Of a stretch of 32,000 bases of DNA, positions 4,758-24,952 are shown in pieces. Position 1 is the stretch's first letter. Each line of letters starts with the position of its first letter. The notes under the pieces were generated by a model. That model searched no databases and was not told where the DNA came from. It saw nothing but the letters and a program-made list of their open reading frames with translations. Origin of the DNA: Candidatus Saccharimonadota bacterium. GTDB lineage: Bacteria > Patescibacteriota > Gracilibacteria > Absconditabacterales > Absconditicoccaceae. The stretch covers positions 1,110,001-1,142,000 of the forward strand of contig CP006913.1 of the NCBI GenBank assembly GCA_000503875.1, read 5' to 3'. Made by a program: the position numbers and the translations under genes.

Positions 4758-5171
4758 ATGAAAGATAAAGATTTTGATGGTTGGAATAATGAAAAAAAGA
4801 AAATTGATAAAGATTTTTCAAAAAAACATCTATGGGTAAATAAAAGAGAGATTCGACTTTATTATGTATGAGTTAATATATGAAATGAAATAAGCAAAAA
4901 TTCGCCATATATAAGACCTTGTTTAATTATAAATAATTATTTTATAGGCGATTTAATCGTTATAATACCCATAACAACAAAATATAAGCAAAAATTTGAA
5001 AAGGTTTTTTATAAATTACCAATAAAATCTAATATATCTAGTTTTTTGATGCTCAATCAAATAACTGTTATTAGTAAAAAAAGATTGGTGAGAAAAATTT
5101 ACATAGAAAATAAAAAAATATCAACAATAATTTTTGAAGAAATTATAGATAAAATGAAAAATTTATTATAA
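4758..5171 (+). CDS. PemK/MazF-like toxin-fold protein, paralog 1 (137 aa), with no adjacent antitoxin ORF
   Basis: Translation with TGA=Gly gives FDGWNNEKKKID...REIRLYYVGVNIGNEISKNSPYIRPCLIIN...IVIIPITTK...MLNQITVISKKRL. This is the G-x-E...RP-x-hydrophobic...P-x-T...Q-x-R/T-x-x-KR pattern of PemK/MazF. It starts 10 nt after the radical SAM stop. Confidence 0.75.
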
Positions 5172-5866: not shown

Positions 5867-7390
5867 ATGTTTTTTCTCATTATATTTTCGTTGGCGATTG
5901 CAGGAATTACAATCACGGAGCTGCCTATCGTCATTATCTTGCTGCGATCGCCAGTGCTTATTTACTTTTTGTTTTCAAAAAATCGTGCAACTTTTTTTGC
6001 CATGACTTGAGCGTGTCTCCTTGCTCTTTTGAGTCGGCAAATGTATCAATGGAGATATTATTGAACAACAACATTACAATCACAAATTTTAACAAAGCCC
6101 TTTCACCTCTCAACCGGAACAATTTCCGAAACTCTATGATCAGGGAAATACCTATACACCACGAACACCAAAGACTATCTGCTTTATACCACAAAAACCT
6201 ATGTCCCTGGCAATCAAATTCGATTAATCGCACGTAATTCGGTCCAGTCGATAAATTCACCATCGCTCACCTTCATTACACGAGATTCTATTTTTTATAG
6301 CGGTTTCAACGCCCCAAAGCGATCAAAAATGAAGGGATACGCCAATATATTATACGAAACCAACTCAGTTTTTATCGACACTGGAATTATTTCATGATTT
6401 TCCAAAATTCGTCACACCTTTCAAAAAAAATTAGAAAAAACTTATACCAATAACAGGACTGCGTGACTAGTTCTATGAATGCTCATTTGAGACAAATCAA
6501 AATTTTCAAAATCAGAAGAACAATTATTTATCGATTCTGGACTTGTGCATTTGGTTGCCGTAAGTGGCGGAAATATAGTTATGCTCGTTACTTTTCTGAC
6601 AGCGATCCTCTTTTTCGTCCCGTTTTACGCCAGAATAACCCTCATCCTCCTCGCCGTCCTTTCCTACGGAATCATCTGTGGTATGGATTCAAGCGTGCTT
6701 CGTGCAGTGCTTATGGGCTCACTTTCTTTGGTCGCATTACTTGTCGGAAGAGGAACATCACTGCGAAGATTACTAGGCTTGGTGCATGTCAGCATGCTTA
6801 TCTACAATCCCTATTTTTTAGTTTACGATGTATGATATATTCTCAGTTTCTCAGCGGTATTGGGTATTGTTTTTGTAGATGTTTTTCATTCATCATCAGA
6901 TGCCAAAATCTCGAAATTTCGAAAACCATTTCTTCGAATCCGATCGAATTATCTCAAGCCCAGTTTATGAGCAACGCTGGGTATTTTTCCAGTTATCATC
7001 TTCTTTATGGGCCAAATAAATATCGGTTGAGTGATAGGAAATATGTTTGTGCTGCCTTTGGTGCCATTTATTATGATTTGATGATTTATTGGTGCTTTTC
7101 TTCCTTCTCGAGCACAAACTTATTATATACCAATTGTCGACTTGCTCGTAGAGCGAAATTACTTCATAGCAGCCAAAATCGATCAATATGGTCCAACAAT
7201 TATCGCTGAGGTATCATGGATCAAATTTTTGCTCTTTACTACATCAACTATTATGATGATACTAGTCATCAAGAAACTGGCAATCACGACAAATGAGGAC
7301 AAACCACCCAAGCCTTTAGACAAACCCACGACATCACCCTATGACGATATCATCACCCACCTTCCTGTCGAAGTAACTCAAAAACAATAA
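5867..7390 (+). CDS. comEC: ComEC/Rec2 DNA-uptake channel protein (507 aa), membrane domain only
   Basis: Contains LVLGMLIGDKSKFSKSEEQLFIDSGLVHLVAVSGGNIVML (competence domain signature) and multiple TM segments. Frame-2 fragments were stitched across about 12 TGA. No C-terminal metallo-beta-lactamase domain is visible. Confidence 0.85.
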
Positions 7391-7670
7391 AAAAATCCAA
7401 AACTTCCCCAAAATCCCCATAAATGAACTCAAAATAATATATAAGTACTTGTTTATATCTTCACATTTTATCACAAAGAGCCTGACTTCCAACAGAAACA
7501 TTCTTAGAATTTTTCAATAGCCCTATTTTTCTCAAAAAATTTGCTATCACGAACAAACTCCAAGCTTTAGATAAGACATTACTCAAAACACTCTCCAAAT
7601 TCCAAGATATAGAAATATTGATGTCGATCTATATGAAAACAAAGATTTTTTAAATATCTTATTAGTTTAT

Positions 7671-8084
7671 ATGGAAAACACCTTTTCTTTATTTGATAGT
7701 TGGAACCAAGAAAAAAAGCATATTCACCAATATTGATCAACCTGAAGAATAAAAGATTTTTATATTAATCATAGAGAGGTTTGGTATGTTAAATTAGGTA
7801 TTAATGTTTGATATGAGCAAAATTGAAAAACTGAGTTTAAAAGAGCGGTTTTGATTATAAAAAAAATAGGTAACATTTTTCTTGTAATCCCAATGACAAC
7901 AAAAGAAAAAAACAATATTTATCACTATAAACTAATATCTTTTAAATGAAAGGTTTCTTGGTTAATACTTTCTCAGTTAAGAACTGTAGATAAGAAAAGA
8001 TTTATAGAAAAAATCTGAGAAATTAGTACAGAAGAACTTAAAATAATTAAAAAAAATCTGAGCAAATACTATTTCTCAGATTAA
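7671..8084 (+). CDS. PemK/MazF-like toxin-fold protein, paralog 2 (137 aa), solitary
   Basis: Contains FDSWNQEKKHI...REVWYVKLGINVGYEQNGKTEFKRAVLIIKKIGNIFLVIPMTTK...LSQLRTVDKKRFIEKIGEIS. It has 7 in-frame TGA and the same length as paralog 1. Confidence 0.8.
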
Positions 8085-8137
8085 CGGTTGTAGCTCAGCA
8101 GTAATGCTGAGGGGATCCCAATAAAGGGACATTTACG
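8049..8137 (-). ncRNA. Predicted cis-antisense sRNA 2 (~89 nt) overlapping the last ~36 nt of PemK-like gene 2
   Basis: Minus-strand hairpins lie at 8115-8130 (5 bp, one pair valid only as G.U on minus) and 8094-8111 (7 bp, 4-nt loop). A terminator follows at 8056-8081 (ATCTGAG/CTCAGAT, 7 bp) plus a T-run (complement of 8049-8055) inside the toxin CDS. No T-tract follows on the plus strand. Confidence 0.55.
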
Positions 8138-8143
8138 TTGTGT

Positions 8144-8171
8144 ATTATAATAATTTTTTTTAAAATTACAA
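8144..8171 (-). promoter_or_regulatory. Antisense sigma70-type promoter TTGTAA-N16-TATAAT facing PemK-like gene 2
   Basis: The reverse complement of 8166-8171 is TTGTAA and of 8144-8149 is TATAAT, with a 16-nt spacer. It lies 60 nt beyond the toxin stop. Confidence 0.55.
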
Positions 8172-10118
8172 ACCATTTTTTCTAAAGCATTATTCCAAAT
8201 TTCAAATCCGCTTTAAATTTTCTCTCCCTGCCACCAACCACCATCCATTCCCCAAAATTACCCCAAAATGTTGTTTTTGTAAAAAGCTAGGTACTAACTA
8301 CATTCTTTGAAAAGATTGTCATTTGCTATAGTTCTTGATATAGATATAGACATTTGTATAAATATCTTTACAAGAAATTGATTGTCCATATAAAACTTTC
8401 TGCTTGCCCATATTTGTTTGCTTCCAAACAAGCATATAGGGATATATCTATATTTCTATGTAAATAAAATACAAAAAAGACAAGAGGGTCGGTTTTTTGG
8501 GATTTTGATCAAAAAAATGAAAAAATTTAATACCTTTTTCACCAAAAATTAAGGAATATTTTTGAAGAGAAAAATCTTTGATATCAAGATTTAGAATTAT
8601 TGTTTCTCAAAAAAACCGTACCATCATTTTCCTCTCAAAAATCATTTTCAGAAAATCTCTCCAAATGGAAAAAATAAAGCAATATTTTTTTCTTCTTTTC
8701 CAAAATTTTCCCCCCAAAATTTTCTTTCTCAATCTTTTTTATCTCTTCAATCATCTTCACCCACCTACACAAAACAAAAAGCCAGAGAAATTGCTTATTA
8801 TACAAAGAGCCTTATTTGCCTTTTTTATCTCTCTGATATCAGACAATATGCCCATAGTTACGATTGCTGGTTTATTGATCAATTCCGCTCCAAAACAGAT
8901 ATTTACTTCTTCAAAACAGATATTTACCTCTCCAAAAATTCGAATAATGTATCCGTTTCACCCAAAATTAGCTCTTTCCCCCAAAAACCCGAAATACCTA
9001 TACAAAACCATCGGTTTAACCACCACTGACACAAAACCACAAAATTTCATCACTACCCACTCAAAATAGATCTTTATCTATATATCTATTTGGCATATCA
9101 AGCCATTTAAGCATAGTTCAATCAATCTATAGATACCTATCAATGTCTTTAAAACAAGGAAACTCGATCAAAACCATTTCAAAAAGCTCCAAAAACCCTC
9201 TTTTTTACAGAAAAATCAGTAGAATTTTTTGTCCAAGAAAAATTTATTTTGCCAAAAGAGCTTAGACAACCAAAATTTTATATTTTGTCAAAAACAGACA
9301 TATTTCAAAAACTAATCAATAAATGACCTAGACAAGAAACCATGCAGAGATACCAACCACCAAAAAATCATTTTCACATGAAGTTCAGATTTTTTTCTTT
9401 TTCCCCTTCGACATTTTATTTGATTTCATGCTCTTTTATTGCTGGGTACAACGCCTATTTCCTCTCCAAAAAGACATTTTGTCTTCAAAGGTGGCTCCAG
9501 TCTTGGTTTATCTTATAATATTTGTCAAAGTTCAGATACAAACTAGGCAAAAACTCATTAAGAACTTCAAAATAAACACCCTTTCTTTCGACTTTTTGTT
9601 CAAACTACCACAAAAAACGACACCAATAACACAAATTCTCTCGTTCTAACAACTATTTTATCATAACAATAAATCTGATTTTCTTTTTTGTTCAAATTGT
9701 CTACCTTATATATACGGAAATTTTGTTTTTCTGTTTTTTCATTTTTGGCGTTTCTCAACTATAATTTATTCTTTATCCAGTAGAGTGAGACATCGCTAGT
9801 CACTCAAGATGACATATATAGTCATTTCGACAGGACAAACCAAGAAAAGTAAAAAAACACCAATTATTGGTCAAACTATTGTGATATAGGGCAAAATGAA
9901 GGACTAATAAGCTATTTGATTATCTATAAGACCAATAATCGTTTTATATTCATTTACACCCACCAACCATTATTATCACCACACAGAAAATAAATATGTC
10001 AATTACATTCTACACCAAACAGACCCAAAACAACGACAAGAGAAAGTCTAAATATACTAGGTAAGAAGCTATGTTTTATATAAATCACCTCAAAATCAAT
10101 GCTTTTTATTACTTTTTT

Positions 10119-10146
10119 TGTCACAATACCCTTTATTTTTCGTATA
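10119..10146 (+). promoter_or_regulatory. ECF-sigma-like promoter TGTCAC-N16-CGTATA upstream of the S-layer-like gene
   Basis: The motif block ACTTTTTTTGTCACAA-N12-TTCGTATACAG at 10111-10149 is repeated at 28892-28930 (16/16 and 11/11 identical). It resembles the SigW-type pattern TGAAAC-N16-CGTATA. It can alternatively be read as TTGTCA-N19-TATACA. Confidence 0.4.
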
Positions 10147-10408
10147 CAGAGGTAGATGGATGGACCCTACCACATCTGTAATCATCAATTGCTAAGCTGC
10201 TTAGGCTCATTGACAACAAAAGGTTATCATTTGTCTAACTTTGTCTTGCATTTGTGTTATAGATTGGTATGCTGTACGCATTGCTGTGTGGATACACAGA
10301 TATTGTTCTTTAATAGTTCATCTTGTTTACCTATAAGGTAGACTTTACTTTGTTCTGCGACTGCTCGCAGACTGAGTGTACGTTTTTATATCGTATTTTA
10401 TTGTACAC

Positions 10409-13420: not shown

Positions 13421-13813
13421 ATGAACGATAAAAAGGAATTGTTTGATATTTGGGGCAAACAAAAATTTATTATAGACAAAGAGATTTCACCTGTTTTTTT
13501 TAAGGAAAGGGATATGTTTTTTATAAAAATGGGTCAAAATATAAGATTTGAACAAAATTGAAAATGATGGGAATTTGTTAGACCAGTAGTGATAATAAAA
13601 AAATTTAATAACGATGTATTTTGGTGAGTAGCATTATCAACAAAAATTAAAGACTGATTATATTATTATTGTTTTGATGCCAATTGAGCCAAACAATGTG
13701 CTATAATATCTCAATTTAGATTGTATGATAAAAATAGATTAATAAAAAAAATTGGTATGATACCTATAAAAGATTTTTTTCAATTAAAACAAAAAATCAA
13801 AAACCTTTTATAG
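13421..13813 (+). CDS. PemK/MazF-like toxin-fold protein, paralog 3 (130 aa), solitary
   Basis: Contains LFDIWGKQKFIID...RDMFFIKMGQNIRFEQNGKGWEFVRPVVIIKKFNNDVFWGVALSTK...ISQFRLYDKNRLIKKIG, with 6 in-frame TGA. Confidence 0.8.
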
Positions 13814-13868
13814 TTTCTGATTGTTTTATATCCCAACATAAGTTAGGACGATCCCGAAGGAATTTAGT
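13790..13868 (-). ncRNA. Predicted cis-antisense sRNA 3 (~78 nt) whose terminator hairpin covers the toxin stop codon
   Basis: On the minus strand there is a short UUCG-loop hairpin (13852-13861) and a 7-bp hairpin at 13831-13848 (TCCTAAC/GTTGGGA; one pair is G.U on minus but C.A on plus). The terminator is CAGAAAC/GTTTTTG (13798-13819) followed by ATTTTTTGTTTT. Confidence 0.5.
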
Positions 13869-13874
13869 GAAGTA

Positions 13875-24394: not shown

Positions 24395-24457
24395 AGAAAT
24401 ATGTAATTATAATTCACCATAACATGGTAAATGTTATTTTATTTTGTAATTATAAAA

Positions 24458-24952
24458 ATGGAATTACTTATAAAAAGATTAATTAACAAGGTCAAAGAAA
24501 TTGCAAACGATATTACAATTCCAATTATATATCAGTTTTTGGATCGATTTAATCTTGTTTTATATCTTCATTTTGAGAAAAAGACACCAAATATTGTTTT
24601 TAAACAACGGGATATTTATGAAATAAATTTATGACAAAATGTTTGAAGTGAATTAAACAAGAAAAGACCATGTATTATTATTTCCAATCAATCTTTTAAT
24701 AAATGAAATACAGTAATAATATTACCATTAAAAGGGATAAGAGAAACTACAAGAATATGAATTATCACGATATCTATTGATTTTCTAAAATCTTGACTAA
24801 AAAAACCAACATATTGTTCTTGTTTTAATATTAGAGAAGTATCAAAAAAGAGGATCTGACAATATATTGGTACTATAACAAATGAAAATAGAAAAATCAT
24901 TAACAATAGTTTGTCTATAATATTTTGATTAAAAAAACAAGCCACCCCCTAG
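24458..24952 (+). CDS. PemK/MazF family toxin, paralog 4 (164 aa; canonical core with an N-terminal extension), solitary
   Basis: RDIYEINLGQNVGSELNKKRPCIIISNQSFNKGNTVIILPLKG...GLKKPTYCSCFNIREVSKKRIGQYIGTI. An alternative start at 24431 is possible. Stitched across 7 TGA to TAG at 24950-24952. Confidence 0.8.

Follow-up and report, generated by a model that had tools for sequence, protein, structure and literature searches.

The window analysed here, a 32,000-nucleotide (nt) stretch of contig CP006913.1, carries at 7671–8084 a solitary gene for a toxin of the MazF/PemK family, and downstream of it the opposite (minus) strand contains a conserved, structured RNA gene with its own convergent promoter. 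This RNA gene is strictly linked to the MazF-type gene, which is catalytically intact and has no protein antitoxin. The small RNA (sRNA) is, as judged by this linkage, probably the RNA antidote of the toxin, and we put at about even odds (0.5) the reading that it is a cis-encoded antitoxin acting by antisense overlap at the 3′ end of the toxin mRNA, in a manner resembling type I toxin-antitoxin systems. Transcription of the RNA, toxicity of the protein, the antitoxin role and the mechanism of pairing are what we infer from the comparisons presented below.

The window is AT-rich (33% GC). Its open reading frames (ORFs) are fragmented under genetic code table 11 and become long once only TAA and TAG are treated as stops, and the toxin is 100% identical to the hypothetical protein P148_SR1C00001G1037 of candidate division SR1 bacterium RAAC1_SR1_1; the host therefore reads TGA as glycine (genetic code 25). 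The toxin ORF itself is unbroken only with TGA as a sense codon. Lists of ORFs made with table 11 split nearly every gene of the window, for example comEC (5867–7390), which has 12 in-frame TGA codons.

The only Pfam match of the toxin is PF02452 (PemK_toxin, E=2.5e-14). The profile of the toxin family aligns with the B. subtilis EndoA/MazF structures (PDB codes 1NE8 and 4MDX, E ~3e-7), and the MazF proteins of B. subtilis and S. aureus are the closest relatives of known structure. Residues R58 and T76 (T76/T77) align with Arg25 and Thr48 of B. subtilis MazF, which we take to be the catalytic residues of that enzyme, and are invariant or nearly so among the relatives. The AlphaFold2 (AF2) model of the toxin is of moderate quality, with a predicted local distance difference test (pLDDT) score of 63, and the best 50 matches to it in a Foldseek search of the PDB are all MazF. 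By sequence and predicted fold, the product is a MazF/PemK endoribonuclease, that is, a soluble ribonuclease (RNase) of the MazF fold. The model is too uncertain in residues 1–41 (pLDDT <50) to say whether the N-terminal extension serves as a built-in inhibitor.

No ORF of at least 25 codons is found under code 25 in 7391–7670, between comEC and the toxin gene, and the toxin is therefore without a protein antitoxin of the MazE or PemI kind. An inverted repeat ATATAGA-N13-TCTATAT at 7613–7640, ~30–55 nt 5′ of the toxin start, is common to the two closest orthologues (loci L004 and L084) and missing from those further away, and it may serve the toxin gene as an operator or promoter element. At its other end, the toxin terminates in …SKYYFSD, an extension by which it outruns its paralogues, whose end is …KNLL*; the reading frame looks as though it had lengthened through an sRNA terminator that was already there.

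The sRNA is predicted from a minus-strand promoter, TTGTAA-16-TATAAT, which matches 10 of 12 positions of the sigma-70 consensus, and from three hairpins that follow this promoter (Table 1). The initial annotation of this DNA, made from the sequence alone, had placed the two promoter boxes, the hairpins and the run of U residues that follows the third one, and a direct reading finds all of these positions exact. The run of eight U at 8056–8049 counts the last base of the hairpin 3 stem. Hairpin 3 and the U-tract fall in toxin codons 126–137 (…IKKNLSKYYFSD*), and the complementarity of the predicted RNA to the last 36 nt of the toxin coding sequence (CDS), stop codon included, which had also been claimed, follows from the coordinates; the overlap would continue for ~50 nt more in the 3′ untranslated region (UTR). 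It is likewise correct that hairpin 3 lacks a T-tract on the plus strand, and that the closing G.U pair of hairpin 1 is valid only on the minus strand, being A.C on the plus strand. Hairpins 1 and 2 have no plus-strand T-tract after them either, the nearest T8 lying at 8153–8160, 22 nt past hairpin 1. At the locus, the two strands are told apart only by the U-tract, the G.U pairs and comparative data. Promoter-like sites are no commoner in the window DNA than in shuffled sequence (42 versus 45.5 expected), so one such site alone means nothing in AT-rich DNA; judged by its conservation, the signal is well beyond chance.

Ten distinct SR1/Absconditabacteria orthologues with 61–88% protein identity were taken from genome and metagenome collections. 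The positions of the −35 TTG and the −10 TATA are kept in all ten, while the spacer drifts. Every SR1 sequence forms standard minus-strand pairs at all 19 positions of the three helices (184 of 184 pair cells, 100%), whereas control helices slid along the same alignment pair in only 20–47% of cells. The number of compensatory cells is 15, compared with 4.9 in shuffles, none of 500 of which reached as high. Hairpin 2 occurs in the variants CUCAGCA/UGCUGAG, CCCUGC/GCAGGG, CCCCGAU/AUCGGGG, CUCCGG/CCGGAG and CCACGGA/UCUGUGG. Hairpin 1 closes with G.U in 10 of 10 sequences, and G.U pairs are also found at one position of hairpin 2 and two of hairpin 3; read on the plus strand, 13 pair cells of the alignment would be A.C mismatches. 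On this comparative evidence the orthologues settle both the strand, which is the minus strand, and the reality of the RNA.

The stem of hairpin 3 is invariant in the SR1 sequences save for a change from A-U to G-U in two of the ten, and it leaves its mark on the codons of the toxin. The codon of Leu130 is CTG in all ten orthologues, while the five other invariant Leu sites use two to four codons each. Phe135 is encoded by TTC in 10/10, while the four other invariant Phe sites have TTT in 10/10, and Ser136 is encoded by TCA in 10/10, while the other invariant Ser sites prefer TCT. The fixed bases of these three codons are exactly those of the hairpin 3 stem, and Asp137 is encoded by either GAT or GAC, a variation that retains a G.U pair in the minus-strand RNA. 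The pattern indicates that the embedded terminator is selected at the nucleotide level, with the synonymous sites of the hairpin 3 codons frozen at rare codons.

Relatives of the toxin are found at 426 loci at least in the GTDB species representatives, overwhelmingly in Patescibacteria, or the Candidate Phyla Radiation (CPR), including Saccharibacteria, Nomurabacteria, Paceibacterota, Peregrinibacteria, Gracilibacteria and others; viral contigs gave only four distant matches. Eighty of the loci were fetched (82 took part in the promoter scoring and 76 in the comparison of upstream ORFs). Nearly all 80 have a variable GC-rich hairpin 3′ of the stop codon, followed by a small hairpin, and on the opposite strand a near-consensus promoter, TTGACA-16/17-TATAAT/TATACT. 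Promoters scoring at least 10/12 are present on the convergent strand of 58 of the 82 loci and on the toxin strand of 2 of 82 in the same DNA (p=3e-13). The convergent strand also folds better across the family, the difference being −1.6 kcal/mol for 60-nt and −2.5 kcal/mol for 95-nt stretches (p=6e-5 and p=9e-6, respectively), and the hairpin loops are UUCG or GNRA on that strand. In one large branch, class A, hairpin 2 followed by UUUCG(A/C)UUUU is the predicted terminator and ends at the toxin stop codon, while in class B and SR1 a third hairpin, which spans or precedes the stop codon, would terminate the RNA. A terminator hairpin lying across the stop codon is seen at many other loci. The RNA motif classes of the family are CUCCGAGA, CUCGCCC and GGGAUCCC.

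A single MAFFT alignment of all RNA classes is structurally inconsistent, and the SR1-only alignment and iterated covariance models were used instead. The model was seeded with nine SR1 sequences and iterated twice (to R3) against 510 kb searched on both strands, with hits rising from 20 to 22 to 35. All 35 hits lie directly 3′ of a PemK gene and convergent to it, with no stray hits; they take in class B loci, one class A locus, the window module at 13824–13873 and a second module on contig L029. The locus itself (8086–8141, minus strand) scores 52.7–71.5 bits (E 2.4e-10 to 2.5e-18), being a seed member that matches by construction, and shows all that defines R3, namely ACAAAUG, two hairpins, a position on the opposite strand directly 3′ of PemK, and a sigma-70-type promoter. 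In the alignment of the 35 sequences, which was fitted to the covariance model, 99.2% of cells pair compared with 75% in shuffles, with 79 compensatory cells compared with 19.8 and a covariation score of 0.65 compared with 0.22 (0/500). Pairs of hairpin 1 switch from GU to GC and from UA to GC, five of the six pairs of hairpin 2 covary, and the closing pair of hairpin 1 would be A.C on the plus strand in 21 of the 35. The 5′ single-stranded consensus is (U)ACAAAUG, whose AAUG is at least 70–90% conserved across the 35 members. Rfam 15 contains no match to the sRNA in the window and 31 related loci, either at gathering score or at E up to 5–10, and the scan gave only tRNA, tmRNA and scattered chance matches.

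The same-strand ORFs upstream of the toxin in the 76 loci compared are of heterogeneous lengths and mutually unrelated, the largest cluster containing 3 of 55 ORFs. This, with the lack of an upstream ORF at the locus, agrees with the earlier claim that the gene is solitary. By these comparisons the sRNA is the only conserved partner of this PemK subfamily, and it is therefore most likely the antitoxin.

Two toxin-sRNA modules lie 3 kb apart on the Saccharibacteria contig L029 (1–200 and 3001–3460), from a metagenome-assembled genome, so modules are often multi-copy within one small genome. In another group of relatives (P0018 and P0019; loci L046, L051, L053, L069 and L074) the called toxin ORF runs on through the sRNA region, and the conserved RNA UCGGAGGCCGAAGCCACUAAU shows as a C-terminal tail, …SEAEATN, that is spurious or accidental; gene-calling programs may make such toxins too long.

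The window contains four PemK genes. The three modules that were scanned each have a minus-strand promoter of 10/12, with the −10 box 60–66 nt past the stop codon, and in the fourth (24431–24952) the −10 box lies ~70 nt past it. In module W1 the terminator, a GGCC hairpin with U8, abuts the stop codon, and folding gives −16.5 kcal/mol on the minus strand versus −14.2 on the plus strand. Module W3 folds to −22.6 kcal/mol on the minus strand versus −10.1 on the plus strand; it was found by covariance model R2 as a non-seed sequence with E=0.043, and by R3 with E=8e-7, the seed alignment of R3 including W3. In W4 a terminator of 10 or more base pairs, two of them G.U, holds the stop codon TAG in its loop, and the energies are −32.9 (minus) and −20.6 kcal/mol (plus). 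The initial annotation had called the RNA at 7671–8171 the clearest antisense sRNA. Its coordinates and conservation hold, but the superlative is debatable, W3 and W4 being more strand-asymmetric. Its proposal of a minus-strand sRNA of ~89 nt, with a start near 8137 and a terminator inside the last 12 toxin codons is supported by the SR1 conservation, the compensatory changes of hairpin 2, the G.U pairs and the synonymous constraint, and by the like architecture of ~80 related loci and of the three other modules of the window.

Table 1. Coordinates of the toxin gene, of the predicted convergent sRNA and of the other PemK modules of the window
Feature	Position	Strand	Remarks
Solitary MazF/PemK-family toxin gene	7671–8084	+	137 amino acids, code 25, six in-frame TGA (Gly); Pfam PF02452
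−35 box TTGTAA	8166–8171	−	TTG invariant, position kept in 10 SR1 orthologues
−10 box TATAAT, 16-nt spacer to −35	8144–8149	−	TATA invariant in SR1 orthologues
Predicted 5′ end (start ~8136–8138) and single-stranded 5′ motif …UAAAUG	8131–8138	−	AAUG invariant in SR1 orthologues
Hairpin 1, GUCCC-UUUAUU-GGGAU, closing G.U	8115–8130	−	five pairs invariant in 10/10 orthologues
CCC linker	8112–8114	−	invariant in SR1 orthologues
Hairpin 2, CUCAGCA-UUAC-UGCUGAG, 4-nt loop	8094–8111	−	4/7 pairs with compensatory double changes in SR1
Single-stranded CUACAA after hairpin 2	8088–8093	−	invariant in 10 SR1 orthologues; adjoining stem and loops vary
Hairpin 3, predicted terminator stem AUCUGAG-12 nt-CUCAGAU	8056–8081	−	within toxin codons 129–137
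U-tract after hairpin 3	8049–8055	−	encoded by AAA AAA AA of Lys127-Lys128-Asn129; T8 invariant in all orthologues
sRNA/toxin-CDS complementarity, 36 nt including stop codon	8049–8084	both	from coordinates
Module W1	PemK 4758–5171; sRNA −35 5264–5259, −10 5242–5237	sRNA −	~60-nt sRNA with UCCGAG motif
Module W3	PemK 13421–13813; −10 13880–13875, sRNA ~13869–13790	sRNA −	UUCG hairpin, 7–8 bp hairpin, stop-spanning terminator
Module W4	PemK-domain gene 24431–24952; −35 25052–25047, −10 25029–25024, sRNA ~25017–24922	sRNA −	toxin of 173 amino acids

In the proposed mechanism, the minus strand at 8138–8049 would give an RNA of ~90 nt from its own sigma-70-type promoter, which fires toward the 3′ end of the toxin gene. 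The RNA would consist of the single-stranded 5′ motif, two hairpins, the CUACAA spacer and the terminator written into the last 12 codons of the toxin, and from codon 126 to the end of the stop codon and on into the 3′ UTR it would be the perfect complement of the toxin mRNA. Pairing of the 3′ regions would trigger cleavage or decay of the duplex or block the completion of translation, as in the 3′-overlap type I systems of B. subtilis. In SR1 and in class B the RNA covers the stop codon.

Several observations weigh against this reading or limit it. The transcript and both of its ends are predictions, the start being set only by its spacing from the −10 box. With −8.2 kcal/mol, hairpin 3 is a weak structure, and its 12-nt loop kept a simple terminator scan from calling it. 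The 95-nt stretch folds to −25.4 kcal/mol on the minus strand (z −4.35) and −25.6 on the plus strand (z −3.80), so energy alone cannot choose the strand at 7671–8171; the initial annotation had proposed this comparison as a check of its minus-strand assignment and had itself counted equal scores as evidence against that assignment. Since the class A terminator reaches no further than the stop codon, not every member of the family overlaps the CDS, and in that class only the 3′ UTR would be left for pairing. Pairing of the sRNA with the 5′ region of the toxin mRNA, either at the Shine-Dalgarno sequence or in trans, was no better for cognate than for non-cognate partners (−18.36 and −18.42, p=0.55). 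Finally, four elements show no variation in SR1, namely the stem of hairpin 1 and the sequences AAAUG, CCC and CUACAA, while changes are free to occur in hairpin 2, in the loops and at the synonymous sites of the toxin. Pure cis-antisense pairing needs no such invariance, which points to an additional, sequence-specific partner. The overlap with the toxin mRNA that the initial annotation described stands, but the action need not be purely antisense, the invariant unpaired motifs suggesting a sequence-specific partner too.

The partner could be the toxin itself. In a mechanism similar to that of type III systems, the convergent sRNA would bind the MazF protein directly, as a pseudo-substrate or decoy, and the antisense overlap would be an incidental by-product of a shared terminator or a secondary layer of control. 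This is the less probable of the two mechanisms, yet a protein-binding component is, from the pattern of conservation, a serious rival or complement to the antisense one. The invariant motifs and hairpin 1 stem described above speak for it, as does the conservation of the 5′ single-stranded (U)ACAAAUG across SR1, Gracilibacteria-type and Saccharibacteria-type loci, while the sRNA of class A barely overlaps the CDS. In most lineages (U)ACAAAUG stands at the 5′ end of the sRNA (8131–8138 at the locus), and it resembles UACAU, which we take to be the site recognized by MazF of B. subtilis and S. aureus; it may serve the toxin as a decoy or be cut by it. In the type III systems ToxIN, CptIN and TenpIN, an endoribonuclease toxin of Kid/MazF-like fold is neutralized by a small structured RNA, and the toxins ToxN and AbiQ have this fold. 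However, the type III RNA is a tandem repeat array encoded upstream in the same operon and processed by the toxin, whereas the RNA discussed here is single-copy, convergent and downstream. No type III-like tandem repeats are found in 7300–8600 beyond a trivial 9-nt unit present twice at 7405–7424, and the toxin, with PF02452 as its sole Pfam match and only MazF among its best 50 Foldseek matches, does not belong to the ToxN/AbiQ, CptN or TenpN families. The conservation of the unpaired bases could also stem from promoter-proximal or terminator constraints.

A combination of the two mechanisms is tentative, being somewhat less probable still. It would make the family a hybrid of types I and III, in which the subfamily swapped its protein antitoxin for a convergent sRNA that acts both as an antisense RNA at the 3′ end of the mRNA and in sequestering the RNase via (U)ACAAAUG or CUACAA as a pseudo-substrate, and this would be the principal toxin-antitoxin format of ultra-small genomes.

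It is unlikely, more so than either of these, that the convergent sRNA is real but is not an antitoxin. It could tune or end the transcription of the toxin gene, by transcriptional interference or a shared bidirectional terminator, be a dedicated substrate or regulator of the RNase, or be a trans-acting sRNA that hitch-hikes with a mobile toxin. Many members indeed have a bidirectional-looking hairpin over the stop codon, preceded by an A-run and followed by a U-run, and the toxicity of this PemK subfamily is presumed. There is also the precedent of aMEF, an antisense RNA that stimulates rather than represses mazEF (PMC8749433). A plain terminator, however, needs neither a consensus promoter nor two more covarying hairpins, the linkage is strict, with 35 of 35 model hits adjoining a toxin gene, and the absence of any other conserved partner fits an obligatory protection against a protein that has kept its catalytic residues.

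That it is instead the plus strand that carries the structure, as a 3′ UTR or terminator of the toxin transcript, with the minus-strand promoter a chance match in AT-rich DNA, is very improbable. The equal folding of the two strands at the locus and the background frequency of promoter-like hexamers would allow it, and on the plus strand the loop of hairpin 2 is GUAA, a GNRA loop. The position of the promoter is conserved, however, with the strand bias across the family given above, no T-tract follows the hairpins, the pairs that become A.C on the plus strand recur in SR1 and through the family (13 cells and 21 of 35 sequences, respectively), and modules W3 and W4 fold ~12 kcal/mol better on the minus strand.

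Least probable of all is that the minus transcript is a short mRNA in which AAAUG supplies the start codon of a small protein antitoxin: although AUG or GUG occurs at a conserved position near the predicted 5′ end and opens, under table 11, an 18-codon frame in the window, the hairpin 1 loop has 5 or 6 nt and hairpin 2 varies in length, so that the frame shifts (MSLYWDPLS…, MSHLGIPPR…), the conserved CCGAGA falls in different frames at different loci, and compensatory changes in stems mark an RNA and not a peptide. An sRNA-encoded peptide was rejected, its frame not being conserved between orthologues.

The antisense-antitoxin reading, which we prefer, finds its nearest parallels among type I systems. 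In txpA/RatA, bsrG/SR4, bsrE/SR5 and yonT/SR6 of B. subtilis, the 3′ end of the convergent antitoxin RNA pairs with that of the toxin mRNA, with overlapping terminator regions, and RNase III cuts the duplex near the toxin stop codon (PMC6562991). The module described here is similar in that the RNA is convergent and the overlap is at the 3′ end of the toxin gene. It differs in that the B. subtilis toxins are hydrophobic peptides of <60 amino acids with longer RNAs, whereas here the toxin is a MazF/PemK protein of 137 amino acids, the RNA is predicted to have ~60–90 nt, and primary-sequence motifs are conserved across phyla. Of the features of type I systems, a cis-encoded, overlapping antisense RNA gene is predicted in silico, and a small hydrophobic toxin is absent. 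Such a toxin is typical of type I and not obligatory, as SymE and RalR show. In symE/SymR and ralR/RalA, antisense RNA antitoxins control nuclease-like toxins (PMC8594479, PMC6562991), but the overlap in those systems is with the 5′ end of the toxin mRNA or with its coding region, and the toxin families are unrelated.

Homologues of the PemK toxin are also present in Campylobacterota, on C. jejuni pVir, in CJIE4 prophages and on plasmids of Helicobacter suis and Nitratiruptor, each with a convergent −10/−35 pair and two or three hairpins that end at the stop codon. The pVir homologue shows 34.5% identity to the window protein, and it is followed by a convergent TTGATT-17-TATAAT promoter and three hairpins ending at the stop. 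None of the convergent promoter-hairpin RNAs right after the stop codon in four of these loci (L093, which is C. jejuni pVir NC_008770 30634–31130, L094, L095 and L096) is annotated, and in Nitratiruptor a CDS annotated as a hypothetical protein begins right at the sRNA promoter. The covariance models built here did not detect the Campylobacter RNA. For C. jejuni pVir a type I system is reported, cjrA/cjpT, which pairs an antisense sRNA antitoxin, CjrA, with a protein toxin (PMC7826846 and PMC10470494, citing Shen et al. 2016, Mol Microbiol 101:909). The identity of cjpT with the pVir PemK gene is a lead only, which adds to the reservations listed above.

The type II MazEF and PemIK systems share the toxin family, fold and catalytic residues with the module, but have an adjacent mazE or pemI gene, while here there is none in the window and no neighbouring protein is conserved in the 76 loci. 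The pemK RNA motif of Weinberg et al. from 2017 is reportedly a structured RNA candidate that accompanies pemK genes without an antitoxin gene and has been put forward as a possible antitoxin; it is said to occur in Firmicutes, 5′ of pemK and in the same orientation. There is no mention of pemK in the main text of PMC5737381. Our literature searches found no account of a PemK-sRNA module in CPR. On the present sequence comparisons, the family is best filed as an RNA-antitoxin variant, made of a MazF/PemK toxin and a convergent, 3′-overlapping structured sRNA, and absent from Rfam. We found it described experimentally at most once, in Campylobacter.

Beyond the modules, a 194-nt block at 8306–8498, inside the “gene desert” of 8200–10375, shows 77–82% identity and is syntenic in the closest relatives (L004, L005, L084 and L085). 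The block gave no match in Rfam, and it folds with z-scores of no more than −1.0 and −1.8. The gene desert is otherwise not conserved, except for ~50 nt near 9184–9236, and an ORF of 190 amino acids called at 8497–9069 has no Pfam family on record. The gene for ribosomal protein S7 in the window is found again on contigs of the same gene order.

MazF and PemK are textbook type II toxins, and the proteins described here are annotated as “type II toxin-antitoxin system PemK/MazF family toxin”. If they are governed by RNA, hundreds of “orphan” toxin annotations in CPR genomes would represent complete two-gene modules, and a new RNA family outside Rfam would be open to annotation. The reduced genomes of episymbionts, hitherto regarded as poor in regulatory RNA, would then carry several copies of an RNA-controlled RNase. 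The module is compact, at ~0.5 kb, and is suited to asking whether one RNA acts on both the mRNA and the protein of a toxin. It also offers a probable case of an RNA terminator dictating the choice of codons at the end of a protein.

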